Under the pieces are notes generated by a model. It made no database searches. It saw only the letters and a list, made by a program, of their open reading frames with translations, and was not told the DNA's origin. The position numbers and the translations under genes are program-made. 64,000 nt of DNA from Thermacetogenium sp. UBA4966 (GTDB lineage Bacteria; Bacillota; DSM-12270; Thermacetogeniales; Thermacetogeniaceae), in contig DHAA01000113.1 of NCBI GenBank assembly GCA_002397275.1, positions 4,694 to 68,693 of the forward strand, in the 5' to 3' direction. Positions 1 through 27,982 of this stretch are shown here, in pieces (the first letter of the stretch is position 1; the number at the start of each line of letters is the position of its first letter).

Positions 1-1153
1 TGCTTTTGGGCCGAGCGGAATCTCCCCCTTTTTTATGGAACCGAGCGGTGTGCAGAGGGCCGCGACAAAGGCCGACTGTATTGATTATTTGAAGCTGGCG
101 CAGTCCTGCGACCTGATCGCTTTTAACCGGCAGGCGGTTTTAGCGTCGGATGTGCCTCAGGAAGACAATCATTTTTGGCATCTCTTGGCTGAGATCAAGT
201 ATACTGATAAGCCCTGCCAGATCTACGACGAGAATTCCCTGCGCCTGGCTTGCATGGCCTTCGGCATTACTCCGCAAAGGATGAAGGAAGACGCGCAAAA
301 GGGAATTCACTATGCGCTGGGCGGGATTAATCCTGTTTCACCCTTATTTCTGACAGCGGACCAGAGCGACCGCCTGCTCCTGCTGGCGGAACACGGGATA
401 CCTGTTGTTGTCGCCGCCATGCCGGCCGCCGGCATGTCCGCTCCCTGCACCCTGCCCGGATTGTTAATCGCTCAGAACTGCGAGAACCTGGGAACTATTG
501 TGCTCAGTCAGTTGAGCAGGCCCGGGGCCCCGGTTATTTACGGCGCCATAGGTACTGTTACCCATATGAAAACCGGCGGCGCCCCGATCGGCGCTCCGGA
601 GACGCGTATTATAGAGCGGGCCTCCGCTCAGATAGCAAGATATTACCGGCTTCCCTCCAGGGGTGATTGCGGCCTGACCGATTCCCTGGATACAGATTTT
701 CAGGCCGGAGCGGAATCAGCACTGCAGTTTTATAATACTGTGAACAGCGGGCTTAACCTGCTCCCGGGGATCGGGGAGCTGGGAAGCTGGCTGCATGCCT
801 CCCTGGAAAAGTTTGTTCTGGATTGCGAGATCGCCGGTTATGTGCAGAGAATGTGCAGACCGCTGGAGTTCACAGAAGAGAACATGGCCGCGGACCTGAT
901 CAAAAAAGTTGGAACCGCCGGCTCCTATATCAGCGAGATGCATACTTTTAAGCATTTCAGGGATGAATTCTATGAGCCATCTGTTTTCCAAAGGACCGTT
1001 TATGACAGGTGGGAACAGGAGGGCAGAATAGATTTAAAGGAAAGAGCGAGGAAAAAGGCGCGGGAGCTGCTGGAGAATTATGAAAAGCCGGACATCGATC
1101 CGCAGCTGGAAAAAGATCTGGAGAAGTTTGTGGAGAGGCGTTTGGGAGATTGA
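1..1153 (+). CDS. MttB-superfamily corrinoid-dependent methyltransferase (non-pyrrolysine type), 5' end outside the window
   Basis: The frame is open from nt 2, with no stop before the ATG at 35. The product aligns along its length with the complete MttB-like paralogs at 16939 and 18697 (for example ARYYRLPS shared with the 16939 copy, and a similar C-terminal HT..HFR.E block). There is no in-frame TAG. Confidence 0.85.
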   Translation, partial: AFGPSGISPFFMEPSGVQRAATKADCIDYLKLAQSCDLIAFNRQAVLASDVPQEDNHFWHLLAEIKYTDKPCQIYDENSLRLACMAFGITPQRMKEDAQKGIHYALGGINPVSPLFLTADQSDRLLLLAEHGIPVVVAAMPAAGMSAPCTLPGLLIAQNCENLGTIVLSQLSRPGAPVIYGAIGTVTHMKTGGAPIGAPETRIIERASAQIARYYRLPSRGDCGLTDSLDTDFQAGAESALQFYNTVNSGLNLLPGIGELGSWLHASLEKFVLDCEIAGYVQRMCRPLEFTEENMAADLIKKVGTAGSYISEMHTFKHFRDEFYEPSVFQRTVYDRWEQEGRIDLKERARKKARELLENYEKPDIDPQLEKDLEKFVERRLGD

Positions 1154-1224
1154 TCATTTAGTGGTTGAAAAAGAATCGCTGCTTTAGTATACTGTAGCTA
1201 GAGACTCATAGTTATGAGACATGA

Positions 1225-1270
1225 GGGAGTAAGCGCAGATGGTTTGCGGCGTGTATTCCCTTTTTGTTTT
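1225..1270 (+). terminator. Intrinsic terminator-like hairpin 1 in the mttB-hutH spacer
   Basis: GGGAGTA...TATTCCC stem with inner GCGCA/TGCG pairing, followed by TTTTTGTTTT. Confidence 0.5.
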
Positions 1271-1297
1271 GCGGCTGCTCACAGTCATGAGTTATGA

Positions 1298-1379: not shown

Positions 1380-2933
1380 ATGATCGAAATGGAGACAGCT
1401 CTCAAGGACACAATTTTTATAGACGGCGAGCACCTGACGCTGGAACAGGTTTGCGCGGCGGCCAGGGATAAGGCCGCTGTAAAGCTGCATCTGTCGGGAA
1501 AAGAAAAGCTGCTCAGATCGAGGAAGGTTGTGGAGAAGATTATTTCCGGCGGGGATGTTGCTTATGGGATCACTACCGGTTTCGGCAAGTTCAGCGATGT
1601 CTCCATTTCTCAGGAAGACTGTGATACGCTGCAAAGAAACATCATCATCAGCCATTCCTGCGGGGTAGGGGAACCCCTTCCCCAGGATGTTGTACGGGCG
1701 ATGATGCTGCTGCGCGCCAATTCGCTGGTCAAGGGTTACTCCGGCGTTCGGCTTGAGCTGGTGGAACTCCTGTTGAATATGCTGAACAGCGGTATTCATC
1801 CGGTGGTTCCCTGCAAGGGCTCGGTTGGCGCCAGCGGTGATCTGATCCCCCTCTCCCACATCGCTCTGTCCATGATCGGGTTGAGTGATGCCGAATATAA
1901 GGGCAGGAGAATCCCTTCCCAAGAGGCTCTGCAGAAGGCAGGGCTGAGCCCGATCTCCCTTACTGCCAAAGAGGGGCTGGCTCTGATCAACGGCACCCAG
2001 TATATGAGCGCTCTCGGGGCTCTGGCGGTCTGCGATGCGCTGCAGCTTTTCAAGGGGGCGTCTATCGCCGCGGCCATGACCTTTGAAGCCCTGGAGGGCA
2101 TAACGGATGCCTTTGACCCCAGGGTGCATGAAGTTCGTCCTCACCAGGGGCAGAAGTTCTGCGCCCGGCTGATGCTGAGGCTTTTGCAGGGAAGCGAACT
2201 GCTGGAAAAAAAGAGGCGTAAAAGGGTTCAGGACGCCTACACCCTGAGGTGCATCCCTCAGGTGCACGGGGCTTCTCTTGATGCCCTCAATTATGTGAAA
2301 GGCGTTTTGGAAATAGAGATCAACTCCGCAACGGACAACCCGCTCATCTTCCCGGATGGGGGAGACGTGATCAGCGGAGGGAATTTTCACGGGCAGCCTT
2401 TGGCTTTAGCTCTGGACTTTCTGGCGATAGCTGTCTCCGAACTGGGCAGTATCTCTGAGCGGCGCACCGAGAGATTGGTCAACCCGTCACTTAACGGCGA
2501 TCTGCCTCCCTTCCTGACCAGAAACGGGGGGCTCAACTCCGGGCTGATGCTGCTTCAGTATGCCGCGGCGGCCCTGGTTTCTGAGAATAAGGTCCTCTCT
2601 CACCCGGCCAGTGTGGATTCTATTCCCACATCGGGCAACCAGGAGGACCATGTCAGCATGGGGTCTATAGCCGCCCACAAAGTTCGAACTGTCGTGGAGA
2701 ATGTTTCCTGGGTTATCGCGGCGGAGATGCTGGCCGCGGGCCGCGCCCTGGGATTCGTTTCCCATAAGGCCGGGCGGGGAACCGAAACCGCCCGCCGCTT
2801 GATTGAGGAAAGAGTCCCCTTTCAAGATGGCGACCAAATTCTATATGAGGAGCTCAATCAGGTATATGATCTGCTGCGCTCCGGGTTGATCGCGGAGGAG
2901 GTAGAAAAAGCTGTGGGGGGAAGGCTCTGTTGA
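1380..2933 (+). CDS. hutH: Histidine ammonia-lyase
   Basis: 517 aa. MIO-forming Ala-Ser-Gly triad in GSVGASGDLIPLSH, full-length HAL-like architecture, and an AGGAGG RBS upstream of the ATG. Confidence 0.93.
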   Translation: MIEMETALKDTIFIDGEHLTLEQVCAAARDKAAVKLHLSGKEKLLRSRKVVEKIISGGDVAYGITTGFGKFSDVSISQEDCDTLQRNIIISHSCGVGEPLPQDVVRAMMLLRANSLVKGYSGVRLELVELLLNMLNSGIHPVVPCKGSVGASGDLIPLSHIALSMIGLSDAEYKGRRIPSQEALQKAGLSPISLTAKEGLALINGTQYMSALGALAVCDALQLFKGASIAAAMTFEALEGITDAFDPRVHEVRPHQGQKFCARLMLRLLQGSELLEKKRRKRVQDAYTLRCIPQVHGASLDALNYVKGVLEIEINSATDNPLIFPDGGDVISGGNFHGQPLALALDFLAIAVSELGSISERRTERLVNPSLNGDLPPFLTRNGGLNSGLMLLQYAAAALVSENKVLSHPASVDSIPTSGNQEDHVSMGSIAAHKVRTVVENVSWVIAAEMLAAGRALGFVSHKAGRGTETARRLIEERVPFQDGDQILYEELNQVYDLLRSGLIAEEVEKAVGGRLC

Positions 2934-3013: not shown

Positions 3014-4294
3014 ATGGCAAAAAAAATTGAGGCCGATTTTCTACTAATAAACGCCGGGCAGCTAATTACCGCGGGGGGGAATTCCGATCACCCCAAGCGA
3101 GGCGATCAGCTGGCGGAGATCGGATTGATCAACGATGGCGCCGTCGCGGCCAGGGATGGCGTGATCGTCGCTGTGGGACCCACATCAGACCTTCGGCAAA
3201 GTGTGGAGCTGATGGAGGGCGCGCTGCTCATCCGTGCCCGGGGGAAAGTAGTTTTGCCCGGTCTGGTGGACCCTCACACTCACCTTGTCTTTGCCGGTTC
3301 CCGGGAGCATGAACTGGAAATGAAGATCCAGGGGGCGTCCTATCTGGAGATCCTGGCCCGCGGCGGGGGGATCCTGGACACTGTACGCTCTACCAGAGCT
3401 GCCGAACATGAAGAACTGATCAGGATCGGGCGCGAATACCTGGACGAGATGCTGGCCCAGGGGACCACAACTATAGAAGCTAAAAGCGGCTACGGCCTGA
3501 CCCTGCGTGACGAGGTGAAGATGCTGGATGTGATCAGGGCCCTGCAAGAGACGCACCCTGTGGACATCCAGCCCACCTTTCTGGGAGCGCATGCCGTTCC
3601 GGAGGAATATAAAGAGGACGCCGATGGTTTTGTAGAACTGGTTGCGCGGGAGATGCTTCCGGCCGTTTCCTCTCTAGGCCTGGCCAGGTTCTGCGACGTT
3701 TTCTGTGAAGAGGGGGTTTTTTCGGTGGCTCAAACCCGCAGGATCCTCACAGAGGCAAAAAGGCTTGGCTTTGAACTGAAGATCCATGCGGATGAGATGG
3801 CCCCCCTGGGAGGGGCGGAACTGGCCGCTGAACTGGGCGCCACCTCTGCCGATCACCTGATGATGATTTCAGATAAGGGGATCGAGATGCTGGCTGCCTC
3901 CGATACTATCGCCGTGCTTTTGCCTGCTACGACCTTCTGTGTGATGGGCGAGCGCTATGCCCCGGCCCGGGAGATGATTGAAAAGGGAGTGGCCGTGGCC
4001 TTATCCACTGATTTCAACCCGGGGAGCAGCCCGGTCAACTCATTGCAGATCGTGATGGGGATCGCCTGCCGCTGCCTGAAAATGACCCCGGCGGAGGTTA
4101 TCTCCGCGGTGACGATCAATGCCGCTCATGCCATGGGGAGCGCCGCCAGTGTGGGGAGCATTGAGGTGGGCAAAAAGGCTGATCTGGTTATTTTTGATGC
4201 GTATGATTACAGATATTTGATGTACCGCTTCGGAACGAACCTTGTTGATCAAGTAGTTAAATGCGGACGAATAGTAGCAGGAGGGCAGTGCTGA
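3014..4294 (+). CDS. hutI: Imidazolonepropionase
   Basis: 426 aa amidohydrolase-fold protein with the DPHTHLVFAGSR metal-binding block and downstream KIHADE / STDFNPGS blocks typical of HutI. Confidence 0.9.
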   Translation: MAKKIEADFLLINAGQLITAGGNSDHPKRGDQLAEIGLINDGAVAARDGVIVAVGPTSDLRQSVELMEGALLIRARGKVVLPGLVDPHTHLVFAGSREHELEMKIQGASYLEILARGGGILDTVRSTRAAEHEELIRIGREYLDEMLAQGTTTIEAKSGYGLTLRDEVKMLDVIRALQETHPVDIQPTFLGAHAVPEEYKEDADGFVELVAREMLPAVSSLGLARFCDVFCEEGVFSVAQTRRILTEAKRLGFELKIHADEMAPLGGAELAAELGATSADHLMMISDKGIEMLAASDTIAVLLPATTFCVMGERYAPAREMIEKGVAVALSTDFNPGSSPVNSLQIVMGIACRCLKMTPAEVISAVTINAAHAMGSAASVGSIEVGKKADLVIFDAYDYRYLMYRFGTNLVDQVVKCGRIVAGGQC

Positions 4295-5181
4295 TGAAAA
4301 TTGTGGAATGTGTGCCTAATTTCAGCGAGGGGCGCCGCAGGGATGTGGTGGAACAGATTTTGGACGCCATTCGCCGCACGGCGGGAGTTAAACTCCTGGA
4401 TTCGTCGTCAGATGCCAGTCATAACCGGACGGTGGCCACCTTTGTCGGGGACCCGCAAGGGGTAAAAGAGGCAGCCCTGGCGGCCGCGGAAATGGCGGCG
4501 TCTTTGATCGATATGGAGAAGCATCATGGAGAGCACCCCCGCATCGGCGCCGCGGATGTGATCCCCCTTATTCCGATCAGCGGCGTGACCATGGATGAAT
4601 GCGTAGAGCTCGCCCGGGAACTGGGGCAGGAGATCGGGGAGAAGCTGTCTATTCCCGTTTTTCTCTATGAAGAGGCAGCGGCAAAGCCTGAACGCAGGAA
4701 CCTGGCCGCGGTGCGCCGCGGTGAATATGAAGGCCTCAAAGATGCGATCAGCCTGCCGGAGAGGCGCCCGGACTTTGGACCCGCGCGTATGCACCCCAGG
4801 GCAGGCGCCGCGGCGGTAGGAGCGCGGCATCCCTTGGTGGCTTATAACATCAATCTGAACACAGGTGATCTGCGGGTGGCCAAAGCGATAGCCAAAAGCA
4901 TCAGGGGGAGCAGCGGCGGTTATCCCAGCATCAAGGCCCTGGGCGTTCTCATTGAGGAAACAGGCGCGGCCCAGGTAACGATCAATGTCTGCAACTTCAG
5001 GGATGTTTCCCTGCCCAGGGTTTTCGAAACGGTGAAAAGCGAGGCCGAGCGTTATGGCGTGAGCATCAAAAGCAGCGAGATCGTGGGGCTGACCCCTATG
5101 GAAGCCCTGCTGGATGCGGCTGTCTTTTACCTGCGGCTCGACGGCTTCCAGCCGGATCAGGTATTGGAGAAGAGACTGTGA
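4294..5181 (+). CDS. ftcD: Glutamate formimidoyltransferase (formiminotransferase domain only)
   Basis: Hallmark N-terminus KIVECVPNFSEGRR. Start placed at ATG 4294, which overlaps the hutI stop (ATGA), rather than the ORF-track start at 4261. Confidence 0.88.
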   Translation: MKIVECVPNFSEGRRRDVVEQILDAIRRTAGVKLLDSSSDASHNRTVATFVGDPQGVKEAALAAAEMAASLIDMEKHHGEHPRIGAADVIPLIPISGVTMDECVELARELGQEIGEKLSIPVFLYEEAAAKPERRNLAAVRRGEYEGLKDAISLPERRPDFGPARMHPRAGAAAVGARHPLVAYNINLNTGDLRVAKAIAKSIRGSSGGYPSIKALGVLIEETGAAQVTINVCNFRDVSLPRVFETVKSEAERYGVSIKSSEIVGLTPMEALLDAAVFYLRLDGFQPDQVLEKRL

Positions 5182-5201
5182 GTACTGAGGAGGTTCCGGT
5201 A

Positions 5202-5807
5202 ATGTTGATGGATATGACTGTCAAAGATTTCTTAGCAGAATTGGCCTCAGAATCCCCTGCCCCCGGGGGCGGGAGTGTTTCCGCGTTAGCCGGGAGTCTT
5301 GCCGCCGCTCTGCTCTCCATGGTGGCCAACCTCTCCGCGGGAGTAGGGGATGCGGAGGCTGTCTTGAAAAAGTCGGCGGCGCTGAAGGTTTCCCTGGAAA
5401 GGGATGTAGATGCCGATACCGAGGCTTTTAACAGAGTAATGGGCGCCTACCGTCTCCCGAAACAAACAGATGGGCAAAAGGAAAAACGAGCTCAGGCTAT
5501 TCAGCAGGCTCTGCAGGATGCGGCGCTGCATCCCCTGAAAGTCGCCCGGCGGTGCCTGGATGTGATGAAGCTTTGCCGCTGGGCCGTAACCTCCGGAAAT
5601 CCCCATGCTTTAAGCGACGCGGGCGTAGCCTCCTTGATGGCGCAATCCGGGATCAGAGGAGCGCTGTACAATGTAGAGATCAATTTAAAAAGCATCAAAG
5701 ACGCAGAATTCAAAGCTGAGATGGAGAGGGAGAGGGAACAGATCCTCAAAGAGGCCCGTGCGCTTGAAGAGGATATCGAAGAGTTTCTAGAAAGCCGTTT
5801 ATCATGA
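5202..5807 (+). CDS. Formimidoyltetrahydrofolate cyclodeaminase family protein
   Basis: VKDFLAELASESPAPGGGSVSALAGSLAAAL block of the cyclodeaminase (FTCD C-terminal-like) family. The ORF is open from 5178; ATG 5202 is preferred because GAGGAGG lies 8 nt upstream. Confidence 0.8.
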   Translation: MLMDMTVKDFLAELASESPAPGGGSVSALAGSLAAALLSMVANLSAGVGDAEAVLKKSAALKVSLERDVDADTEAFNRVMGAYRLPKQTDGQKEKRAQAIQQALQDAALHPLKVARRCLDVMKLCRWAVTSGNPHALSDAGVASLMAQSGIRGALYNVEINLKSIKDAEFKAEMEREREQILKEARALEEDIEEFLESRLS

Positions 5808-5998
5808 ACTGTGTTCGCCTGATCGGCCCGGCATTCATTGTCATTGAGACTGAGGCGCCGGGTTGATGCCGTAAACCGTTATACAGTCAAATGGCGCCGG
5901 ATGCCGGATAACTCTTAGAATTAAGAACATGCTGCAAAAGGAGTTTCGTCGAATATAGTCGAATTTAAGCATATCTCCATTTTTGGGGGGTGTGTAAG

Positions 5999-7438
5999 AT
6001 GCAAAAGAAAAAACTAGAGCCGCTTGAAGAGCGTTTGGCCTTGCTGGAAAATGTTCTGGATACTATTTATGAAGGCGTTATCGTCACAGACACCGAGGGT
6101 AAGATAGTTTTCTTTAACAGCGCTCTGGAGAGTATGGAGGGTTTAAAAAAGAGCGAGGTGCTGGGGCGCTATCTTTCAGATGTATACAAAGTTTCGCCGG
6201 AAAAAAATGACCACCGCCAGGTGCTCAAATCAGGAAAACCATATAAAGAGCAGTCGATAACATATTTTACCACTAAAGGCGAAGAGATCAATCTTGTGGC
6301 CGGCTTTTATCCGGTCAGTCATCAAGGGCAGGTTATCGGAGCTTTTTCGCTATGCCGTGACTTTACCAGGATCAAAGAGCTGCTCACTAAAAACATGAAT
6401 CTGCAGAGGCAGGTTCAGCTGAAGAGGGACGGTGCAGAGCGCTTAAACAATGGAACCCGCTACGAACTTGAGGATTTTATCTATGCCAGCGAACAGATTG
6501 AAAGGCTGATCAATCAAGCACAGAAAGCGGCCTTGACCGATTTTCCGGTCCTGGTTTATGGAGAAACCGGGACGGGAAAGGAGATACTGGCGCAGGGAAT
6601 ACACAATGCCAGCATCCGGCGGGAGGAGCCCTTCATCGGGATCAACTGTGCGGCGATCCCGGAAACGCTGTTGGAGAGCACCCTCTTCGGCACAGTGAAA
6701 GGGGCCTTTACAGGCGCTGTCGACAGCCCGGGGTTATTTCAGCAAGTGGGCAAAGGTACGCTGTTTCTCGATGAGATCAATTCCATGCCCCTCACGCTGC
6801 AGGCTAAACTGCTCAGGGTTCTGCAGGAAAGAAGATACCTGCGGGTGGGGTGTACCAGGGAACTCCCTTTGGAATGCCGGATCATGACCTCGACGAATAT
6901 CGACCCTTATCAGTGTATTGAAGAGGGGACCCTGAGAGAGGACATCTATTACCGTTTTGCGGTTTTTACACTGTGCATACCGCCTTTAAGAGAGCGCGTA
7001 GAGGATATTGAAGAGCTTGTCAATCACTTTATTAAAAATTTCTGCAGGCTTTATGGACAGCGTGATGTGCGGCTGGACTCCGAACTGAAACAGGCTTTTC
7101 TAGGTTACAAGTGGCCGGGCAATGTCAGGGAATTGCAGCATGTGGTAGAGAGCAGCCTGGTCATGCTGAACCCCGGTCAAAGTGAGATCACCTTTGAACA
7201 CTTACCATCGTTTATCCGTCACAAATTTAAACAGCAAAAAGCTCACCTTACGCTAAAGTACACAGCGCAGAAGGATACGAAGACTTTGAACCAGATCATC
7301 AGAGACACGGAAAAACAGGTTATTGTGGATGTGCTGAGCAGCCATGGGGGGAATATCACCAGGGCTGCCGAGTCACTGGGGATTGTGCGGCAGAATCTCC
7401 AGTACCGCATGCGCAAACTGGGGATCAGCTCCCAGTAA
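5999..7438 (+). CDS. Sigma-54-dependent transcriptional activator with N-terminal PAS-like sensor domain
   Basis: Central AAA+ domain with Walker A GETGTGKE, the GAFTGA sigma-54 contact loop and Walker B LFLDEI. C-terminal Fis-type HTH (NITRAAESLGIVRQNLQYRMRKLGI). Confidence 0.9.
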   Translation: MQKKKLEPLEERLALLENVLDTIYEGVIVTDTEGKIVFFNSALESMEGLKKSEVLGRYLSDVYKVSPEKNDHRQVLKSGKPYKEQSITYFTTKGEEINLVAGFYPVSHQGQVIGAFSLCRDFTRIKELLTKNMNLQRQVQLKRDGAERLNNGTRYELEDFIYASEQIERLINQAQKAALTDFPVLVYGETGTGKEILAQGIHNASIRREEPFIGINCAAIPETLLESTLFGTVKGAFTGAVDSPGLFQQVGKGTLFLDEINSMPLTLQAKLLRVLQERRYLRVGCTRELPLECRIMTSTNIDPYQCIEEGTLREDIYYRFAVFTLCIPPLRERVEDIEELVNHFIKNFCRLYGQRDVRLDSELKQAFLGYKWPGNVRELQHVVESSLVMLNPGQSEITFEHLPSFIRHKFKQQKAHLTLKYTAQKDTKTLNQIIRDTEKQVIVDVLSSHGGNITRAAESLGIVRQNLQYRMRKLGISSQ

Positions 7439-10193: not shown

Positions 10194-10229
10194 CCGGATG
10201 CAGAGGACAGAGGACAAGGGGGAAAAAGA

Positions 10230-11999: not shown

Positions 12000-12087
12000 A
12001 ATAAAAGCTTTCCGCTTGAGGAGGTGAGAGCCTGCTTCAATTGCTGCCTATTGCGGTAAAAGTGAAAAAAGGAAAAGGGGGATATCT

Positions 12088-16811: not shown

Positions 16812-16827
16812 TGGTATGGTTTTTGCA
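16812..16827 (+). promoter_or_regulatory. Sigma-54 (-24/-12) promoter
   Basis: TGGTATGGTTTTTGCA, with GG and GC exactly 12 nt apart, matches TGGCAC-N5-TTGCA. It lies about 110 nt upstream of the MttB gene at 16939. Confidence 0.7.
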
Positions 16828-18375: not shown

Positions 18376-18390
18376 TAAGGGCTATGGCAT

Positions 18391-18428
18391 ACCGTTCCCA
18401 TCCTGATGGGGACGGTATATTTATTTCT
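18391..18428 (+). terminator. Rho-independent terminator
   Basis: ACCGTTCCCATC-CT-GATGGGGACGGT hairpin (one mismatch) followed by ATATTTATTTCT, 15 nt after the stop codon. Confidence 0.7.
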
Positions 18429-18594: not shown

Positions 18595-18610
18595 GGGCAT
18601 GTTTCTTGCA
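18595..18610 (+). promoter_or_regulatory. Sigma-54 (-24/-12) promoter
   Basis: GGGCATGTTTCTTGCA with the GG-N10-GC spacing correct, followed by ATA as in the other two sites. It lies about 85 nt upstream of the MttB gene at 18697. Confidence 0.65.
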
Positions 18611-20157: not shown

Positions 20158-20200
20158 TTGAGGATGGCGCTTGATAAATCATATCGTGGGGGGTTGTGGC

Positions 20201-21292
20201 GTGAAAAAATATGAAATACCGAGTCCGGCTGTTATTGTTGATCTCGCCGGCGCGGAAAGAAATATCGAGCGGGTAGCCGCTCTTACTCGTAAATATGGGG
20301 TGCTGCACCGTCCGCATATCAAGGCGCATAAAAGCGAGTATTTCGCGCGCAAGCAGCTGCTGGCGGGAGCTATAGGGGTAACCGTATCCAAAATATCTGA
20401 AGCCGAAACCATGGTTGAGCACGGGATTAATGATATTTTGATCGCCTATTCCATCGTTGGGGAAGAAAAGCTGCGCAGGCTGAAAAAACTCCATGAAACC
20501 GCCCGGGTGATGGTCACTGCGGACAGCATTGAGGCGGCCAAGGGATTGGCCGGCACAGGCGCCCCGCAACACCCCCTGCCTGTGTTGATCGAGGTCGACT
20601 GTGGAACACACCGCGGCGGAAGGCAGCCTGGGGATGATGCTCTGCTGTTCGCTTTACAGTTAAAGGAGTTTCCTTCGCTGAAGATCGAGGGGATCTTTAC
20701 CTACAACGGCAACCTCTATCATACCGAGAACACAGAACAGCTGAATAGACTTGTTGCCCGGGAATCGCAATTGCTGACGGAAACAGCAGAAAATTTAAGG
20801 CGGCATGACATTCCCGTGCAGATCATAAGCGGGGGTTCGACCCCGGCTCTTGCGGCTTTGGATAAGCTGCAAGGGGTTACTGAGATCCGAGCGGGGAACT
20901 ACTTGTTCAGCGATGTTTCCGGGATTCAGTTCGGAACCGCCGGCATTGAGGATTGCGCTCTGCGAGTTCTGGCTACGGTGATCAGCGTTCCTCTTCCCGG
21001 CTATGCCACCATTGATGCCGGCTCCAAGACTCTGACAAATGATCTCTCTGTGCGCGGCGAGGGGTATGGACTCATTGTGGGGCGTCCAGGGGTGCGGTTG
21101 GTCAATCTCAATGAAGAACACGGCTACCTCCGCTATGCTCCGGAGCGGGCGCCGTTACAGATAGGCGAGCGGATCGAGATTATTCCCAATCACGCCTGCG
21201 TCCTGCCTAATCTCTGCGATAAAATCTATGGGATCCGCGGAGAAGATGTTGCCGAAGAGATCTCGGTCGATGCCCGTGGAAGAAACTATTGA
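20201..21292 (+). CDS. D-threonine aldolase / D-serine dehydratase (DSD1-like) family PLP enzyme
   Basis: HRPHIKAHK PLP-lysine motif and alanine-racemase-N-terminal-like fold pattern. GTG 20201 is preferred; the ORF is open from 20171. Confidence 0.7.
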   Translation: MKKYEIPSPAVIVDLAGAERNIERVAALTRKYGVLHRPHIKAHKSEYFARKQLLAGAIGVTVSKISEAETMVEHGINDILIAYSIVGEEKLRRLKKLHETARVMVTADSIEAAKGLAGTGAPQHPLPVLIEVDCGTHRGGRQPGDDALLFALQLKEFPSLKIEGIFTYNGNLYHTENTEQLNRLVARESQLLTETAENLRRHDIPVQIISGGSTPALAALDKLQGVTEIRAGNYLFSDVSGIQFGTAGIEDCALRVLATVISVPLPGYATIDAGSKTLTNDLSVRGEGYGLIVGRPGVRLVNLNEEHGYLRYAPERAPLQIGERIEIIPNHACVLPNLCDKIYGIRGEDVAEEISVDARGRNY

Positions 21293-21313: not shown

Positions 21314-22282
21314 GTGGCTGTCCTTGAGCAATTCATGGCTGTCTTTCGGGCGCCGGAGTTTGTGAAGCCCTATTGGCATCATTTTGTAACAGAACAGGAG
21401 ATGGAACTCGTCGCCAGGATGGATTCCCGGCGCCTGAGCAGGGATGAAATCGCTTCCCTGTTTGTGGAGCCTGTTCCGGATGTGGACAGGCTGCTGGAAG
21501 AGGCCTACCGGCGGTTTGTGGTCAATAAAGAGGAAAAAGAAGGGGTTGTTTATTACACTGCCGGCGAGTTTTATGACAGATTGGACAACCAGTGCAAGTT
21601 CGGCAACTACTATGTTTTGCCTCCGAAGATCCGGCGGCGGTTGGACAGGTGGTGCTATGAGGAGTATCTCCAGAGGCATAATTATTTTCAATTAGTTGTG
21701 GACAACGACCCTGATTATGATAACTGTCACAACGAGCTGATTCTCCTGGCATCTGAAGTCGAAGAGATGATCGGCGCCGCTGAAAGCATAATGGCGCTGC
21801 CCTGCAACTGCAAGATGCTGGCAGATAATTGCGACAGGCCGCGCGAGGTCTGCATGTTTTTTGACAACCACATCACCGACCGCACCGGCGGAAGATATCT
21901 GAGCAAGGAAGAGGCCAGGGAGCTGCTGCGCATGGCGGACAGAAGTGGCTTGATTCACACCGGCGGCCCCTATAACTGGAGAGAAAAGGGGCTCGCTGCT
22001 GTTTGTAACTGCTGTGCCGACTGCTGTTACCCCTTGAGGGCGGCTCAGCAGCTGGGCACAAAGGGGAAGTGGCCTAAATCTCGTTATATCGCTCGCTACG
22101 ACGCCGATAAATGCCGCTTGTGCGGGCGATGCCTTAAACGCTGCCAGTTCGGCGCTTTTTATGACGACGGTAGTACAATGGCGTTCAACCCTGATCTCTG
22201 CTGGGGATGCGGCCTCTGTGCCAACACCTGCCCCGAGGGCGCCATCACTATGGAAAAAGTGGAAACTTTAGAGCAAAAATAA
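21314..22282 (+). CDS. Cysteine-rich 4Fe-4S dicluster domain protein of unknown role
   Basis: C-terminal ferredoxin motifs CRLCGRCLKRC and CWGCGLCANTCP, plus extra Cys clusters CNCKMLADNC and CNCCADCC. There is no ASKHA/ATPase domain, so it is not a canonical RamA. Confidence 0.65.
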   Translation: MAVLEQFMAVFRAPEFVKPYWHHFVTEQEMELVARMDSRRLSRDEIASLFVEPVPDVDRLLEEAYRRFVVNKEEKEGVVYYTAGEFYDRLDNQCKFGNYYVLPPKIRRRLDRWCYEEYLQRHNYFQLVVDNDPDYDNCHNELILLASEVEEMIGAAESIMALPCNCKMLADNCDRPREVCMFFDNHITDRTGGRYLSKEEARELLRMADRSGLIHTGGPYNWREKGLAAVCNCCADCCYPLRAAQQLGTKGKWPKSRYIARYDADKCRLCGRCLKRCQFGAFYDDGSTMAFNPDLCWGCGLCANTCPEGAITMEKVETLEQK

Positions 22283-22303
22283 TATTCTTTAGGCGTCCGG
22301 CAG

Positions 22304-22322
22304 ACGCAAAGATTATTTGCGT
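22304..22322. promoter_or_regulatory. Candidate enhancer (UAS) inverted repeat ACGCAAA-N5-TTTGCGT
   Basis: Perfect 7-bp inverted repeat with a 5-nt spacer, 40 nt upstream of the sigma-54 promoter at 22362. Confidence 0.55.
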
Positions 22323-22361
22323 TAAAGGGGAAAGAAGGCGCGCAAACGGTAATAATAAGTT

Positions 22362-22377
22362 TGGCACGCTTTTTGCA
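22362..22377 (+). promoter_or_regulatory. Sigma-54 (-24/-12) promoter
   Basis: TGGCACGCTTTTTGCA is a near-perfect match to TGGCAC-N5-TTGCA. Confidence 0.8.
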
Positions 22378-22807
22378 ATAAAATTAAGATGAGTGAGACG
22401 GGCAATGTTAATAGAGGGGAAATAAAGCTTAAGGGGGATTTGCCGGAGATGCGCCACAGAAGCAGCAAGGAAGATGGAAACAGAGGCGGTACTTAAACAC
22501 AGATGCTAATTCAGTAAAATCACAGCAGCGGTCGCCGTATTCAGATGAAGCAGCGGTCATGACAGGATACAGCATAATCAGACAGTAAATTGCATAGTAC
22601 ATGGGACGCTTATTGATAATCATCGTCGCACCCGGATTGCAGCAAAAGTCACCGCAAGGGCGTCCCATACCACCCCCTTAAAAATTTGATGTCGCCGCCA
22701 CATGGCGCGGTGTAGACTGTAAAAGTTCTTTGACAGCCATAATAACATTAAAAGCGAATGTTTCGCTTGGTGCAAACGACACAACACAAAAAATGGGAGG
22801 GATTTAC

Positions 22808-23440
22808 ATGGCAGATTTTAAGGAATTGGCGGGTCTTGTGATCAGCGGCGATGTGGAGAAGGTTATCAGCACGACGCGGCAGATGCTTGACGCCGGGGAA
22901 GACCCCATGAAGATCATCAACGAGGGATTGATTAACGGTATCAATGTCATCGGCGAACGCTTCAAAGAAGGGGAGATCTATGTCCCGGAAATGATGATGG
23001 CTGCTCAGGCGATGAAGTCCGGGATGGAACTGGCCAAAGAAAAGGTTGAGGGGAGCGACATTCCCACAGCCGGCAAGGTGATTATGGGAACAGTGGCGGG
23101 AGACCTCCATGATATCGGCAAGAATCTAGTGGCTATGATGCTGGAGAGCAGCGGCTTTAACGTGGTGGATCTTGGTGTTGATGTGGAGGCAGACAAATTT
23201 ATCGCCGCTGTCAGGGAACACAATGCCCAGGTTATCGGCATGTCCGCTCTGCTGACCACCACCATGCCCGCGATGAAAGAGGTTATTGAAGCGCTGAAAG
23301 AGGATGGCCTGCGCAGCAATGTTAAGGTTATGATCGGCGGAGCGCCCGTTACCCAGGATTACGCCGATGAGATCGGCGCCGATGGTTTTGCCGCGGATGC
23401 AGGAATCGCCATCGATCTGTGTAAACAGCTGGTTGGATAG
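22808..23440 (+). CDS. Corrinoid (cobalamin-binding) methyltransferase partner protein, MtgC/MtbC-like
   Basis: About 210 aa with a helical cap plus a B12-binding Rossmann domain carrying DxHxxG (GDLHDIGKN) and SALLTTT. ATG 22808 has a GGGAGGG RBS; the ORF-track start 22730 is probably too long. Confidence 0.85.
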
Positions 23441-25274: not shown

Positions 25275-26729
25275 GTGTTGAAGCTGAAGAATCAGAGGTG
25301 GGAGAAGGCTTACTTTGAGCAGGAGCGAGGCTCTGTCTTAAATTCCTGGCCCACCGGACAGGAAGTTGACCTTGAAGACGCCTTCCGGTTTCACCAATCC
25401 CTGCCGGAGAGCAAGAGGGCATACTGCAAGCTGCGCGCAGGAGAGGAAAGCAAAATCATTTATCTCCAGCCCCGCGCCGGCGTTGCCTTGCTTACGCAAC
25501 ATATAGAACTATTATCCGCGCTGGAATCAAAGGGCGAGGCGGATTTCTTGCCGACAACCATTGATTCTTATACCCGTCAGAACCGCTATTCCGAAGCAGC
25601 CAGAGGAATTGACGAATCAAAAGCCGCCGGTAGATCATTGTTGAACGGCCTTCCCGCTGTAAATTATGGCGTGGCTAATTGCCGCAAGATCATCAATGCT
25701 CTCCACCTGCCTGTTCAGATCAGGCACGGCACGCCGGATGCGCGGCTGCTGGCGGAGATCACGCTGGCCGCGGGCTTTACCGATTTTGAAGGAGGGGGAA
25801 TTTCCTATAATATCCCCTATGCCAAGGATGTGCCGCTGGAGCGCTCCCTCGCTCACTGGCAGTATGTGGACCGTCTCTGCGGGGTTTATGCAGATGAGGG
25901 GATTATCATCAACAGGGAGATGTTCGGACCCCTGACCGGCACGCTGGTTCCGCCATGCATTTCGCACGCGGTCGGCATAATCGAAGCCCTGCTCGCCGCG
26001 GCTCAGGGGGTGAAGAGCATCGCCGTCGGCTATGGCCAGGGGGGAAACATCTACCAGGACACGGCGGCTCTGCGCACGCTTGCGCGGCTGGGAAGAAAAT
26101 ACCTTGATCAATATGATTTCCCTGACGTCTTGCTGACCACCGTATTTCACCAGTGGATGGGGGGCTTCCCCCAGGAGGAATCGCGAGCTCTGGGAGTGAT
26201 CGCCTGGGGCGCCGCCACCGCGGCTTTAGCCGGTGTAAATAAGGTGATTGTCAAGACTCCCCATGAAGCCCTGGGGATACCCACAGCCGAGGCTAATATC
26301 GCGGGGCTTCTCTGTACGCGGCAGGTGATGCGTATGCTGGGCGAGCAGTCATTGGCGACGACCTCCCGCCTCAAGGAGGAACAGGATATCATTGAGCAGG
26401 AAGTCGATGAGATATTATGCAAAATCTTCGAACTGGGAGAAGGAGACCTTGCCGCGGGAGCTGTGCGCTCCTTTGAAGCAGGTGTGCTGGATATTCCCTT
26501 TGCTCCTTCCCGTTATGCCAGGGGGAGCATTATGCCCGTGCGGGATAATAACGGCGCCATCAGGTTTCTGAACACCGGAAACATCCCTTTTTCGCAAGAA
26601 ATTAAGGATTTTCACCGCAAAAAAATTGAGGAACGGGCGCAGATGGAAAAAAGAGAACCGGGCTTTAGGATGGTCATCGACGACATCTATGCCATCAGCA
26701 AGGGCAGGCTGGTGGGGAAACCGAGGTGA
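25275..26729 (+). CDS. glmE: Glutamate mutase (methylaspartate mutase) large epsilon subunit
   Basis: 484 aa TIM-barrel-type subunit in the canonical glmS-L-E-mal order. Confidence 0.88.
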   Translation: MLKLKNQRWEKAYFEQERGSVLNSWPTGQEVDLEDAFRFHQSLPESKRAYCKLRAGEESKIIYLQPRAGVALLTQHIELLSALESKGEADFLPTTIDSYTRQNRYSEAARGIDESKAAGRSLLNGLPAVNYGVANCRKIINALHLPVQIRHGTPDARLLAEITLAAGFTDFEGGGISYNIPYAKDVPLERSLAHWQYVDRLCGVYADEGIIINREMFGPLTGTLVPPCISHAVGIIEALLAAAQGVKSIAVGYGQGGNIYQDTAALRTLARLGRKYLDQYDFPDVLLTTVFHQWMGGFPQEESRALGVIAWGAATAALAGVNKVIVKTPHEALGIPTAEANIAGLLCTRQVMRMLGEQSLATTSRLKEEQDIIEQEVDEILCKIFELGEGDLAAGAVRSFEAGVLDIPFAPSRYARGSIMPVRDNNGAIRFLNTGNIPFSQEIKDFHRKKIEERAQMEKREPGFRMVIDDIYAISKGRLVGKPR

Positions 26730-26737
26730 ATGGGAAG

Positions 26738-27982
26738 ATGTATATAGAAAAGGTTCTGGCAGCGCCGGGTTTGACCGGTTTTTATTTCGACGATCAGCTG
26801 GCGATCAAGAAAGGGGCCGGAGAAAATGGCGCGGCCTACAGCGGCCGGCCGTTGACCCCCGGTTTTATAGAGGTGCGTCAGCGCGGGGAATCATTGTGTA
26901 TTATGTTTTTGCTTTCCGACGGACAGGTGGCTTATGGAGACTGCGCCGCTGTTCAGTACTCCGGAGCGGATGGCCGGGATCCCCTTTTCCTGGCGGCGGA
27001 TTTTATACCGCTGGTCGAGGGTTATCTGGCGGAGAGGCTGGAGGGGATGCAGATTTCTACATTTCGGGCGCCCGCGGAGGAGTTTGACGCTCTCCCGGGA
27101 CCCGATGGCCAAAGGATGCATACCGCTTTGCGCTATGGGCTGACCCAGGCTCTGCTCCATGCCGTCGCGATCAAAGAGAAGAAGCTGATGTGCGAGGTTC
27201 TGGCAGAGGAGTACAATACCGGATTAATTGCCGAGCCGGTCCCAATTTTTGCTCAGACCGGTGATGATCGTTACAGCAACGCCGACAAAGCAATTATCAA
27301 ACGGGCCGATGTGCTGCCGCACGGCCTGATCAATAATGTAGAGCTCAAGCTGGGAGGCAGCGGAGAGAAGCTGTACGACTATGTGTCCTGGCTGAGGAAG
27401 AGGGTGGCGGAACTGGGGGGCGAGGATTACCGTCCGGTTCTGCACATCGATGTTTACGGGACTCTAGGCCTGGCCTTTGAGAACAACCTGGAGGGGATAG
27501 CTGATTATTTGGCTCGCCTGGAGACCGCGGCCTCCCCCTTGCGGCTGCGCGTCGAGGGGCCGGTAGATATGGGGTCGAAGGAGCAGCAAATAGAAGCCCT
27601 GAGCAGGCTGAAGATACTCCTGGTAACAAAAGGGACAAAGGTGGAGATCGTGGCTGACGAGTGGTGCAACACGCTGGAGGATGTGCGGGATTTTGTGGAT
27701 GCCGGCGCAGGCCATATGGTGCAGATCAAGACCCCTGATTTGGGAGGAATCAACAACACCATAGACGCTATTCTCTATGCCAGGGCTCATGGAGCAGGCG
27801 CCTATCAGGGAGGGACCTGCAATGAAACAGACCGCTCGGCCCGTGTCTGTGTGCATTTAGCCCTGGCTGCCCGCCCTGATCAGATGCTGGCTAAACCGGG
27901 GATGGGTGTGGACGAGGGAATGATGATTGTGATGAATGAAATGCAGCGTGCCCTGCGCATCTTGAAGTATAGATCGGGGTAG
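26738..27982 (+). CDS. mal: Methylaspartate ammonia-lyase
   Basis: Colinear with clostridial beta-methylaspartase (PGLTGFYFDDQ.AIKKGAG, CAAVQYSGA.GRDPLF, HMVQIKTPDLGG, GGTCNET.RSA). ATG 26738 is preferred; the ORF is open from 26726. Confidence 0.92.
   Translation: MYIEKVLAAPGLTGFYFDDQLAIKKGAGENGAAYSGRPLTPGFIEVRQRGESLCIMFLLSDGQVAYGDCAAVQYSGADGRDPLFLAADFIPLVEGYLAERLEGMQISTFRAPAEEFDALPGPDGQRMHTALRYGLTQALLHAVAIKEKKLMCEVLAEEYNTGLIAEPVPIFAQTGDDRYSNADKAIIKRADVLPHGLINNVELKLGGSGEKLYDYVSWLRKRVAELGGEDYRPVLHIDVYGTLGLAFENNLEGIADYLARLETAASPLRLRVEGPVDMGSKEQQIEALSRLKILLVTKGTKVEIVADEWCNTLEDVRDFVDAGAGHMVQIKTPDLGGINNTIDAILYARAHGAGAYQGGTCNETDRSARVCVHLALAARPDQMLAKPGMGVDEGMMIVMNEMQRALRILKYRSG

Follow-up and report, generated by a model that had tools for sequence, protein, structure and literature searches.

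The window analyzed here is a 64,000-nucleotide stretch of contig DHAA01000113.1 from Thermacetogenium sp. UBA4966. It carries an island of genes for histidine degradation (hut), an OpuB/OpuC-type importer, three MttB-family paralogs and the methylaspartate route of glutamate fermentation (Table 1). All island genes listed in the first-pass annotation were confirmed by ORF calls, Pfam and NCBIfam, at the coordinates given there and on the forward strand. The pathway extends past position 27982, where it had been taken to end, to a mesaconase-type fumarase (35965-37411).

Table 1. Genes and signals of the island, with positions in the window.
Feature	Position	Strand	Evidence or remark
MttB1, clade C, Arg-type	1-1153	+	PF06253, 270 bits
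hutH, histidine ammonia-lyase with MIO	1380-2933	+	TIGR01225, 689 bits (cut-off 539)
hutI, imidazolonepropionase	3014-4294	+	TIGR01224, 489 bits (cut-off 298)
Glutamate formimidoyltransferase	4261/4294-5181	+	FTCD_N, FTCD and FTCD_C across this and the next gene
Formimidoyl-THF cyclodeaminase	5178-5807	+	Joint span with formimidoyltransferase 4261-5807
PAS/sigma-54 enhancer-binding activator, PrdR-like	5990-7438	+	Pfam, NCBIfam
hutU, urocanate hydratase, long 683-aa form	7489-9540	+	TIGR01228, 424 bits (cut-off 375)
OpuB/OpuC-type ABC importer, 4 genes	9537-13008	+	Pfam, NCBIfam
Importer permease	9537-10193	+	
Importer CBS-ATPase	10230-11357	+	
Importer second permease	11358-11999	+	
OpuAC-type lipoprotein binding protein	12088-13008	+	
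AcnX large subunit	13206-14486	+	PF04412/PF01989 pair; Fe-S dehydratase family
AcnX small subunit	14483-14899	+	PF04412/PF01989 pair
RidA imine deaminase	15248-15637	+	Pfam, NCBIfam
HisC-type aminotransferase	15654-16760	+	Pfam, NCBIfam
Sigma-54 promoter-like site TGGTATGGTTTTTGCA	16812-16827	+	Upstream of MttB2; also in L012, L013
MttB2, clade D, sister to B'	16939-18375	+	No internal stops
Intrinsic terminator-like hairpin	18389-18418	+	After MttB2; 13-bp stem
Sigma-54 promoter-like site GGGCATGTTTCTTGCA	18595-18610	+	Upstream of MttB3
MttB3, clade A (hut-linked clade)	18697-20157	+	No internal stops
Fold-type-III PLP enzyme, D-threonine aldolase/D-serine dehydratase-like	20171-21292	+	PF01168, PF14031
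FeS320	21314-22282	+	Winged-helix N-terminus, 8-Cys central domain, 2[4Fe-4S] ferredoxin domain
Perfect predicted sigma-54 promoter TGGCACGCTTTTTGCA	22362-22377	+	430 nt upstream of corrinoid gene
MttB-cognate corrinoid protein, MtgC/MtbC-like	22808-23440	+	PF02607, PF02310; NCBIfam MtgC-type, 225 bits
glmS, glmL, glmE, glutamate mutase and chaperone	starts 23494, 23904, 25275	+	
mal, methylaspartate ammonia-lyase	26726-27982	+	
AtuA-like, DUF4387 and uncharacterised 302-aa protein	28198-30789	+	Always after mal
Molybdenum hydroxylase, large, 2Fe-2S and FAD subunits	30979-34866	+	Pfam
Class-I fumarase-type hydratase, alpha and beta, candidate mesaconase	35965-37411	+	PF05681, PF05683

HutH contains the MIO motif GSVGASGDL at residue 151, and HutU is 77-83% identical across related loci; thiourocanate models (NCBIfam) score on HutU far under their cut-offs. 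The presence of FTCD, HutI and a HutU that exceeds its equivalog cut-off implies an intermediate with an unsubstituted imidazole C2, hence urocanate and not thiourocanate. An MIO-containing HutH requires a primary amine, so a betaine entering this route would have to be demethylated completely. Orthologs of the PAS/sigma-54 activator (52-62% identity) occur in related loci. Sigma-54 promoter-like sites of the form TGGCAY-N5-TTGC precede MttB2, MttB3 and the corrinoid protein-glm operon in the window. In 20 of the scanned loci they also stand before clade-A genes; they occur further 5' of the importer in Desulfosporosinus and before glmS in L010 and L027, and L029 and L031 have one at the corresponding place. 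No Rfam element was found in the leader of the corrinoid gene.

Clade A, defined as MttB genes at least 58% identical to MttB3, has members in 31 other loci (59-85% identity) from Desulfosporosinus, Paradesulfitobacterium, Desulfurispora, Desulfofundulus, Zhaonella, Syntrophaceticus, Thermacetogenium and Syntrophomonadaceae MAGs. In 30 of the 31 the clade-A gene is followed immediately by a second paralog, B'. Among the 21 loci for which at least 12 kb were fetched, 15 contain hut genes and 20 contain hut or glutamate mutase (glm) genes. Most clade-A loci also hold the importer (orthologous OpuC-type genes in 16 loci), the PAS/sigma-54 activator, a corrinoid protein and the 320-aa Fe-S protein FeS320. 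The unit of corrinoid protein, glmSLE and mal is conserved in L013, L016, L022-24 and L045, L010 too has the fumarase-type hydratase after its glm-mal block, and the molybdenum hydroxylase recurs near MttB clusters in L034, L044, L048 and L050. More distant relatives of clade A (55-56% identity) stand either in a hutH-HutP-MttB context or with a HisC aminotransferase, an ADP-forming acyl-CoA synthetase, HutP and a 2-oxoacid:ferredoxin oxidoreductase; in L039 and L040 a HisC-type aminotransferase (53% identity) shares an operon with a clade-A-like MttB.

The juxtaposition of MttB and Hut, far from being absent in related genomes, goes far beyond chance, and several families of Bacillota show it with the genes rearranged. 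This variation in gene order from one lineage to another argues for selection, beyond mere common descent. These neighborhoods support the view that MttB demethylases, a betaine-type importer, the Hut enzymes and the methylaspartate route constitute one conserved system, with sigma-54 promoter-like sites in common. Some observations fit it less well. The canonical A-B' pair, which in relatives stands between the Fe-S gene and the corrinoid gene, has been lost from the window, where no B' paralog was found; no hutH was found within 10 kb in Desulfosporosinus orientis. FeS320 (16 invariant Cys; AF2 pLDDT 91; matches in the PDB confined to the ferredoxin and winged-helix parts) is present in 19 of 31 clade-A loci, but also in a cluster of Anaerolineae that is unconnected with histidine.

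The three MttB paralogs had been read as a stepwise demethylation series, which does not hold, as they fall into three separate clades and two of them belong to types that are found without hut genes. Candidatus Formimonas warabiya carries MttB1-type and MttB2-type genes together with AcnX and RidA in such a hut-free setting, and MttB1 relatives at 51-62% identity are not hut-linked. Orthologs of MttB2 (76-88% identity) occur in L012, L013, L024 and L050, in the last two linked to AcnX. MttB1, MttB2, AcnX and RidA may therefore act on a second N-methyl amino acid, perhaps together with the PLP enzyme and the aminotransferase. With NF051439, AcnX scores no more than 227 (cut-off 700), and with the BhcC model the PLP enzyme, which is restricted to the closest relatives (L013), scores 189 (cut-off 690).

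The window includes the 3' 383 codons of MttB1, whose start is 272 bp to the left and whose full length is 474 aa (L046 4171-5595). The protein is 35% identical to MtgB and keeps the equivalent of MtgB R312, an Arg common to MtgB, MtcB, MtpB, MtyB and MthB (PMC13080624); it has Trp in place of F356, and its residue at the pyrrolysine position is Leu. MttB2 has Trp, Gly and Asp at these three positions, and MttB3 has Phe, Gly and Cys, so that the comparison with characterized ligand sets separates MttB1, which retains the Arg, from MttB2 and MttB3, which do not. Clades A, B' and D all lack this carboxylate Arg of the five characterized quaternary-amine MttBs and, as hercynine carries a carboxylate, this counts against hercynine as their substrate. 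Clades A and B' resemble pyrrolysine-MttB, unlike MtgB, at three of five positions (aromatic at 312, Gly at 356, Tyr97 absent). We know of no non-pyrrolysine MttB shown to demethylate tertiary or secondary amines. A pattern of one Arg-type and two Cys-type MttBs recurs in L010, where it is embedded in hut, in L034 and L044, where an MtgB-like gene adjoins HAL, and in L051, together with BCCT, a corrinoid protein and a THF methyltransferase; against this, no Arg-type MttB was seen within 10 kb in most canonical clusters.

The overlap of the hutU stop codon with the importer start was confirmed (TTG at 9537, TGA at 9538-9540). Such coupling had been called unusual, but the Pseudomonas hut operon also contains an ABC importer, hutXWV (PMC8034625). 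The TTG is preceded by GAGGGGG, and no terminator-like site was found between hutU and the importer. HutX is a member of the ProX family. Inspection of the binding protein gave a divided result: in canonical clusters the Tyr/Asn/Tyr/Phe/Tyr pentagon, the cage of quaternary-amine binders (PMC9732360), is intact in the orthologs (5/5), whereas the window protein keeps only 3/5 positions (Asn to Ser, Phe to Asn), so its ligand may not be a trimethylammonium compound. The EgtU signature is also absent from the binding proteins, which have Phe at the Gly244 and Tyr at the Phe293 position of EgtU (PMC9732360), and this too speaks against a histidine-betaine ligand. Support for such a ligand comes from Sporomusa termitida, in which an importer orthologous to this one, whose binding protein shares 66-76% identity with those of canonical clusters, and FeS320 flank an ergothionase-like lyase without Ala-Ser-Gly. 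Among solved proteins this lyase matches T. denticola ergothionase best (333 bits vs 272 for HAL). An MIO-less HAL derivative next to A-B' in Syntrophaceticus schinkii points the same way.

On balance we lean towards the view that the island serves the catabolism of an N-methylated histidine, with a histidine betaine (hercynine, or else ergothioneine or a product of it) as the likeliest candidate, and that a second MttB module is interleaved. The importer would take up the methylated histidine, and MttB-family methyltransferases would move its N-methyl groups onto the corrinoid protein (DxHxxG motif GDLHDIG). An Arg-type MttB with an MtgB-like carboxylate clamp, here MttB1, would act on the quaternary amine; the Cys/Asp-type paralogs, which lack the Arg and have a pocket nearer that of pyrrolysine-MttB, would act on the tertiary and secondary amines (A and B' in most genomes, here MttB3 and its neighbor MttB2). 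A methyltransferase outside the window would then pass the methyl groups to tetrahydrofolate. The first-pass annotation had noted neither this function nor a RamA-type activator in the window; profile searches (Pfam/NCBIfam) likewise found no RamA there, but the same contig encodes a pterin-binding methylcorrinoid:THF methyltransferase (L046 3112-3912; NF005719, 378 bits vs cut-off 259) at 0.5-1.3 kb to the left of position 1. Histidine so formed would pass through HutH, HutU, HutI and formimidoyltransferase-cyclodeaminase to glutamate and a second C1 unit on THF, and the glutamate would be fermented via glutamate mutase, methylaspartase and the mesaconase-type hydratase. The earlier proposal of a hercynine-type substrate is partly supported: the Sporomusa arrangement favors it, while the identity of the substrate rests on inference.

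An unlikely alternative is that the substrates are ring-methylated histidines (N-pi- and N-tau-methylhistidine, free or from anserine- or balenine-type dipeptides), A and B' each stripping one methylimidazolium regioisomer to yield histidine for Hut. Two paralogs would fit two isomers, the pocket is without the carboxylate-clamp Arg that would be expected beside an alpha-trimethylammonium group, protonated methylimidazole would be a chemically good leaving group, and in L041 a clade-A-like gene stands after hutH-HutP and before an oligopeptide-type (SBP_bac_5) importer. The quaternary-amine-type pentagon of the canonical binding proteins, the pairing of the same importer with an ergothionase-like lyase in Sporomusa and the recurrence of Arg-type MttBs next to the A-B' pair argue otherwise, and imidazole N-methyl activity is known for no MttB member. 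Poorer still are the prospects of a lyase route, by which a trimethylammonia-lyase would cleave histidine betaine to urocanate and trimethylamine and the Cys-type MttBs would demethylate the released TMA and DMA independently of pyrrolysine. Both histidine betaine trimethylammonia-lyase and ergothionase have been described (bioRxiv 10.1101/2025.08.13.670108), an MIO-less HAL derivative lies immediately 5' of A-B' in Syntrophaceticus schinkii, hutU is kept within clusters more often than hutH, and the likeness of A and B' to pyrrolysine-MttB would also fit; however, the window and most clusters have an MIO-containing HutH and no MIO-less lyase, no pyrrolysine-free methyl transfer from trimethylamine is known, and a generic trimethylamine enzyme would have no need to be tightly linked with hut, HutP or HisC-type genes. 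Equally improbable is the absence of any shared substrate, with a histidine importer like hutXWV and MttBs for ordinary betaines (glycine or proline betaine) clustering only through common C1 loading on THF and a need for B12, as the Pseudomonas precedent, the degraded cage and the hut-free MttB1 and MttB2 types would allow, for essentially all clade-A loci with sufficient flank show a link to hut or to histidine, across three histidine-pathway contexts and the histidine-sensing HutP, sigma-54 promoter-like sites are shared, and the Arg that is a ligand in glycine- and proline-betaine enzymes is missing from A, B' and D.

No paper connecting hercynine or urocanate to MttB was found in the literature searched. 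The recurrence of the MttB-Hut pairing in about 30 other genomes of anaerobes points to an undescribed digestion of methylated histidine (e.g., hercynine or ergothioneine), which, if true, would release no trimethylamine.

The evidence best supports reading this region as a gene island for the breakdown of a methylated histidine, in which sigma-54 promoter-like sites lie 5' of the MttB genes and of the operon that encodes a corrinoid protein and glutamate mutase (glm). The source is an uncultured member of the Bacillota, Thermacetogenium/Syntrophaceticus-like, known from fermenter metagenomes. Every gene from position 1 to 37.4 kb lies on the + strand, and the gene identities proposed in the first-pass annotation were each confirmed by Pfam and NCBIfam. 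The features with coordinates are listed below; MttB1, MttB2 and MttB3 are the three MttB paralogs of the window, FeS320 is a 320-aa Fe-S protein, and numbers beginning with L denote loci fetched for comparison, L046 being the window's own contig extended to the left.

Coordinates of the features discussed (window positions unless a locus is named)
Feature	Position	Remark
THF methyltransferase	L046 3112-3912	
Window position 1	L046 4443	
MttB1 (clade C)	2-1153	fragment
TGGCAY-N5-TTGC site	16812	5' of MttB2
MttB2 (clade D)	16939-18375	
TGGCAY-N5-TTGC site	18595	5' of MttB3
MttB3 (clade A)	18697-20157	
FeS320	21314-22282	
Gap before corrinoid gene	22283-22807	525 nt; perfect sigma-54 promoter, then leader of ~430 nt to corrinoid gene
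TGGCAY-N5-TTGC site	22362	perfect match; 5' of corrinoid-glm operon
Corrinoid protein	22808-23440	
AtuA-like, DUF4387 and family-less genes	28198-30789	
Molybdenum hydroxylase	30979-34866	three subunits
Radical-SAM/SPASM maturase, then ArsR-type regulator	46252-48104	
Two tandem giant genes	54713-63161	- strand; 1350 + 1462 aa
238-aa protein	L007 15925-16641	Desulfosporosinus
HAL-derived lyase	L023 2152-3738	Syntrophaceticus schinkii

The giant genes, which encode Shr-like haem-binding and GLUG motifs, adjoin a two-component system and an FtsX-type ABC exporter and are unrelated to the MttB-Hut island.

The Hut (histidine breakdown) pathway is present in its formimidoyltransferase variant, with HutH, HutU, HutI and both halves of the formimidoyltransferase-cyclodeaminase (FTCD) above the family cut-offs. 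HutH exceeds its equivalog cut-off and carries the MIO-forming motif GSVGASGDL; because Ala-Ser-Gly is present and the equivalog score fits HutH, its assignment as an ergothionase or histidine betaine trimethylammonia-lyase was rejected. HutU exceeds the hutU cut-off, and its assignment as a thiourocanate hydratase was likewise rejected (282 bits against a cut-off of 930 for NF058530, 325 against 880 for NF058531). The reported overlap of hutU with the importer genes is real: its stop codon overlaps the TTG start of the first permease gene, which is preceded by a GAGGGGG Shine-Dalgarno sequence, and no terminator-like site was found between the two genes. For the methylaspartate route, glutamate mutase S and E with their chaperone, methylaspartase (mal) and a mesaconase-type hydratase were found in the window, and no citramalate lyase was recognisable among the window genes. 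The genes beyond the end point of the first-pass annotation encode AtuA, DUF4387, a family-less protein, a molybdenum hydroxylase and an EamA transporter, followed by the two subunits of a class-I fumarase-type hydratase that is a candidate for the expected mesaconase. The AtuA-like, DUF4387 and family-less (~300 aa) genes always stand 3' of methylaspartate ammonia-lyase, in the window as in L010, L016, L022-L024, L029 and L045, and this triad may provide the late step that the methylaspartate pathway otherwise lacks here. The molybdenum hydroxylase, a member of the xanthine-dehydrogenase family, is again found next to MttB clusters in L034, L044, L048 and L050, whether or not hut genes are present.

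A methylcorrinoid:tetrahydrofolate (THF) methyltransferase had been reported as missing from the window, which is correct; one is encoded on the same contig. The contig continues 4.4 kb leftward, and a pterin-binding enzyme of this kind (266 aa; NF005719, 378 bits against a cut-off of 259) is encoded 0.5-1.3 kb left of the window, directly 5' of the full-length, 474-aa MttB1 and itself preceded by a sigma-54-like site. The reported absence of a RamA-type reductive activator extends to all window ORFs of at least 110 aa and to the 4.4-kb left flank; the activator may be encoded elsewhere. The cognate corrinoid protein of the MttB system, with B12-binding_2 and B12-binding domains and the DxHxxG motif, is the product of the first gene of the glm operon.

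Homologues of MttB3 were located on their contigs, a scan at one genome per species added 34 loci, and the loci were annotated against the proteins of the window. The juxtaposition of MttB and Hut recurs in related genomes. Clade-A genes, defined by an identity of at least 58% to MttB3, occur in 31 loci, in 30 of which a second MttB gene, B', follows immediately downstream. Where 12 kb or more had been fetched, which was the case for 21 loci, hut genes are present in 15 and hut or glutamate-mutase genes in 20; the importer occurs in 16 loci and FeS320 in 19. Judging from genome sizes, chance would place a hut locus within 10 kb of a given gene in fewer than ~1% of genomes. The usual order is hutU (sometimes after a sigma-54 activator), permease-ATPase-permease-binding protein, FeS320, in some cases an aldehyde:ferredoxin oxidoreductase, A, B' and corrinoid protein, followed either by glmS-L-E-mal-AtuA-DUF4387-unknown or by hutU/hutI/FTCD. 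This order is shuffled among Desulfosporosinus, Paradesulfitobacterium, Zhaonella, Desulfurispora/Desulfofundulus and the Thermacetogeniaceae/Syntrophomonadaceae group. More distant relatives of clade A (55-56% identity) occupy two additional histidine-related settings: they are found in the arrangement hutH-HutP-MttB followed by an oligopeptide-type importer, or with a HisC-type aminotransferase, an ADP-forming acyl-CoA synthetase, HutP and a 2-oxoacid:ferredoxin oxidoreductase before MttB.

Several genes of these loci deserve separate mention. The aldehyde:ferredoxin oxidoreductase, of the tungsten type and absent from the window, usually stands between the binding protein or FeS320 and the clade-A gene (L005, L009, L014-L016, L021, L026, L028, L029). 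The Desulfosporosinus clusters share a conserved 238-aa protein beside hutU (L007, with orthologues in L032, L034, L035 and L044) that gave no Pfam or NCBIfam match. In S. schinkii, a lyase derived from the HutH fold (HAL; 531 bits to the hutH model) lies directly 5' of A-B' and has lost Ala-Ser-Gly (GSVGY---L); as a candidate, it may be a methylamine-eliminating lyase of a histidine derivative that arose independently.

Sites of the form TGGCAY-N5-TTGC precede MttB2, MttB3 and, as a perfect match, the corrinoid-glm operon, and a strong hairpin terminator lies 3' of MttB2. In 20 of the scanned loci this motif also lies 5' of clade-A genes, and it is found before the Desulfosporosinus importer, the MIO-less lyase of S. 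schinkii and glmS in L010 and L027, with a site at the equivalent position in L029 and L031. No such site was found 5' of hutU, hutH or AcnX, and an Rfam scan for riboswitches and other RNAs gave no match anywhere in the window, long leaders included.

All three window MttBs match the PF06253 TIM-barrel (270, 282 and 313 bits) in uninterrupted reading frames with no in-frame UAG. Pairwise identities and a neighbour-joining tree resolve four clades, namely A (MttB3), B' (the partner of A), D (MttB2) and C (MttB1), with D sister to B' at 47-53% identity. The glycine-betaine ligands of MtgB are Y97, R312, H348 and F356, of which R312 binds the acidic group of the substrate and is conserved in MtcB, MtpB, MthB and MtyB (PMC13080624). 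These positions were mapped with HMMER and MAFFT, by alignment to MtgB and pyrrolysine-MttB as sequences of solved structure, the Y97 column being the least certain of the four.

Residues at the MtgB ligand positions and at the pyrrolysine position
Protein	Y97	R312	H348	F356	Pyrrolysine position
MtgB	Y	R	H	F	Leu
MttB1 (C)	G	R	P	W	Leu
MttB2 (D)	S	W	H	G	Asp
MttB3 (A)	S	F	H	G	Cys
B'	S	W	H	G	Cys
Pyrrolysine-MttB	V	Y	Y	G	Pyl

None of the three window MttBs has the full ligand set. MttB2 and MttB3 lack R312, and MttB1 is the only window paralog to keep its equivalent. Since R312 is conserved in the characterised enzymes and absent here, clades A, B' and D appear by this criterion, which stands in for a phylogeny against MtpB, MtcB and MtyB, to lie outside every characterised specificity group; MttB1, from its sequence, looks like a conventional acidic-betaine enzyme. 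Among the 120 MttB3 matches listed, all at least 53% identical and most of them without a name, none of the named ones is from Eubacterium. At three further sites A-B' is joined by an Arg-type gene of a different subclade from MttB1: in L010 this gene is embedded between hutH/MFS and hutI, in L034 and L044 it adjoins a HAL, and in L051 it stands between two Cys-type genes with BCCT, corrinoid protein and THF methyltransferase genes. A supposedly conserved 66-aa ORF beside Arg-type MttBs was rejected, the two examples being unrelated.

Stepwise demethylation by several MttB paralogs had been proposed; the three in the window are of three different kinds from separate clades, and the region is a mosaic rather than one linear pathway. 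Its closest relatives (L012, L013) carry MttB2-MttB3-PLP enzyme-FeS320 followed by a canonical A-B' pair and the corrinoid protein. In the window this 3-kb A-B' segment is missing; its position corresponds to the gap before the corrinoid gene, and a similarity search of 22259-22795 found no remnant of the pair. MttB2-type genes accompany AcnX in L024. Candidatus Formimonas warabiya has an MttB1-type gene (55% identity) and, immediately 3' of it, one of the MttB2 type (76%); genes for both AcnX subunits, for RidA and for a molybdenum hydroxylase come next, and no hut genes are nearby. As hut linkage was also not found for relatives of MttB1 at 51-62% identity, MttB1, MttB2, AcnX and RidA constitute a module able to exist without Hut, which may serve a second N-methyl amino acid. 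AcnX matches its Pfam family and scores 227 against a cut-off of 700 for the cis-3-hydroxy-L-proline dehydratase NF051439; with a match at family level only, the substrate of the module is left unnamed.

The binding protein of the importer belongs to the OpuBC/OpuCC/OsmF/EgtUC group. The aromatic pentagon of EgtUC is formed by F293, N339, Y341, Y419 and Y443 (PMC9732360), and the cage was mapped from it by motif spacing rather than by direct alignment to EgtUC. Inspection of the cage gave a divided result: all 17 cluster orthologues keep five of five positions (Tyr, Asn, Tyr, Phe, Tyr), whereas by the same map the window protein is degraded to three of five, with Ser135 for Asn and Asn for Phe. 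An EgtU-type assignment was rejected, as by motif spacing the protein lacks Gly244/Phe293 (K-T-F and E-Y-T-G motifs) and is encoded by a separate gene (PMC9732360); the Gly244/Phe293 signature is absent from the cluster orthologues as well. The motif E-x-x-x-R-x-D was rejected as a mark of ergothioneine, being shared with Thermoanaerobacter OpuBC and thus uninformative. In Sporomusa termitida, a HAL-fold lyase is encoded between an orthologous importer and FeS320. The binding protein there shares 66-76% identity with the canonical ones and 55% with that of the window, and keeps five of five cage positions with Tyr replacing Phe. The lyase lacks Ala-Ser-Gly, has the T. denticola ergothionase as its best solved relative and keeps a Lys matching the thiolate-binding Lys384 of that enzyme (allowing a one-residue offset in chain numbering). 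This context ties the importer/FeS320 cassette to histidine betaines via a second, mechanistically different route, and a hercynine-specific trimethylammonia-lyase is known.

FeS320 belongs to a widespread Fe-S family without a solved structural relative. Its 62 homologues share 16 invariant Cys, enough for four clusters, and the AlphaFold (AF2) model (pLDDT 91) predicts three parts, namely a winged helix at the N-terminus, an alpha/beta domain that is novel and rich in Cys, and a 2[4Fe-4S] ferredoxin domain; Foldseek against the PDB matched only the ferredoxin and winged-helix parts and gave no whole-protein match. A role as substitute for RamA/RACo was rejected, as FeS320 has no ATPase or ASKHA domain and no wider PDB fold match. 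FeS320 may donate electrons for corrinoid reactivation, act as a redox-sensing regulator or catalyse a desulfurisation. The gene often adjoins a transporter gene. In L048 (Anaerolineae) it occurs with four MttBs, an Orn/DAP decarboxylase, a racemase-like gene, MFS, a zinc alcohol dehydrogenase, a methylaspartase-like lyase and the molybdenum hydroxylase, a cluster that looks like another undescribed N-methyl amino-acid pathway.

In the proposed pathway, methyl groups would pass from the substrate via the MttBs and the corrinoid protein to the THF methyltransferase and THF; the resulting histidine would be converted by Hut to glutamate and formimino-THF, and glutamate would enter the methylaspartate route. 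Ring-methylated histidines are the first rival substrates. The favoured substrate is an N-alpha betaine whose ring is unsubstituted, either hercynine or, once its sulfur has been removed, ergothioneine; in its favour are the canonical FTCD, HutI and HutU, the MIO-HutH, the quaternary-amine cage of the canonical binding proteins and the lyase context in Sporomusa. A second rival is a lyase route in which trimethylamine would donate the methyl groups. MIO-less HAL-fold lyases occur in the related loci L023 and L047. The ergothionase of T. denticola (6s7j) and the histidine betaine trimethylammonia-lyase of Shewanella woodyi share the presumed substrate class, and their product also feeds urocanate metabolism; these known routes, however, eliminate trimethylamine in one step, whereas the window lyase is a true MIO-HutH and the methyls would here leave singly onto THF, with trimethylamine never released. 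The third rival is co-location without a common substrate. For demethylation of the N-alpha betaine, a staged scheme may be envisaged, in which an Arg-type enzyme would act on the quaternary amine and leave the tertiary and secondary ones to Cys-type enzymes; in Formimonas, stepwise betaine demethylation has been inferred from physiology, with the enzymes not assigned. We tentatively suggest, while regarding it as rather doubtful, that the Cys/Asp-type MttBs (A, B', D) form a new catalytic class that acts after the Arg-type enzyme and demethylates N-alpha-dimethyl- and N-alpha-monomethylhistidine to the free amino acid without pyrrolysine.

The components belong to known families. MtgB/MtgC/MtgA of Desulfitobacterium hafniense and MtpB/MtcB/MtyB/MthB of Eubacterium limosum share with the island a non-pyrrolysine PF06253 protein, a DxHxxG corrinoid protein, a THF methyltransferase, a betaine-type transporter alongside and a Wood-Ljungdahl-type C1 host. 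In contrast, MttB2 and MttB3 are only ~28-30% identical to MtgB, lack R312, Y97 and F356 and have Asp or Cys at the pyrrolysine position; two to three paralogs per cluster are embedded in Hut and glutamate-mutase operons, FeS320 and sigma-54 promoter-like sites are added, and no RamA gene is nearby. Pyrrolysine-MttB of Methanosarcina barkeri (PDB 7xcl) has the same fold (~29-31% identity) and, like clades A and B', an aromatic residue at 312 and Gly at 356, but here there is no UAG or pyrrolysine, its place being taken by Cys (A, B') or Asp (MttB2), and the context is bacterial amino-acid catabolism. EgtUV and OpuBC/OpuCC/AfProX (F-III) represent the same binding-protein family (119-152 bits), with the pentagon conserved in the canonical cluster orthologues; unlike EgtU, the importer has a separate lipoprotein binding protein and two permeases, not fused, and no Gly244/Phe293. 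The genes of clostridial histidine and glutamate fermentation (hutH, hutU, hutI, FTCD, glmS, glmL, glmE, mal, mesaconase-type hydratase) are present and canonical, the differences being the conserved triad 3' of mal and the lack of a recognisable citramalate lyase. What appears to be new is the multi-paralog architecture, the Arg-less Cys/Asp active site, the conserved Fe-S partner and the fusion with Hut and glutamate-mutase operons; the proposed substrate class would be new as well, and our literature search found no report joining hercynine or urocanate with MttB.

Among the abundant metabolites of fungi and actinobacteria are ergothioneine and hercynine, whose anaerobic fate is, to our knowledge, known only via trimethylamine-releasing lyases. 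In the corrinoid route, tetrahydrofolate would receive the imidazole C2 along with all three methyls, acetate and pyruvate would be formed from the carbon skeleton, and no trimethylamine would arise. Which enzymes of acetogens demethylate tertiary amines such as dimethylglycine is unsettled (PMC9768040), and the contrast between Arg-type and Cys-type enzymes makes this question directly testable; cultured carriers of the cluster are Desulfosporosinus orientis, Desulfurispora thermophila, Zhaonella formicivorans and S. schinkii. If the tentative assignment of the Cys/Asp-type enzymes is true, the island would represent a trimethylamine-free anaerobic route for hercynine and ergothioneine carbon, and one Arg-type plus two Cys-type enzymes would be a general rule for complete betaine demethylation.
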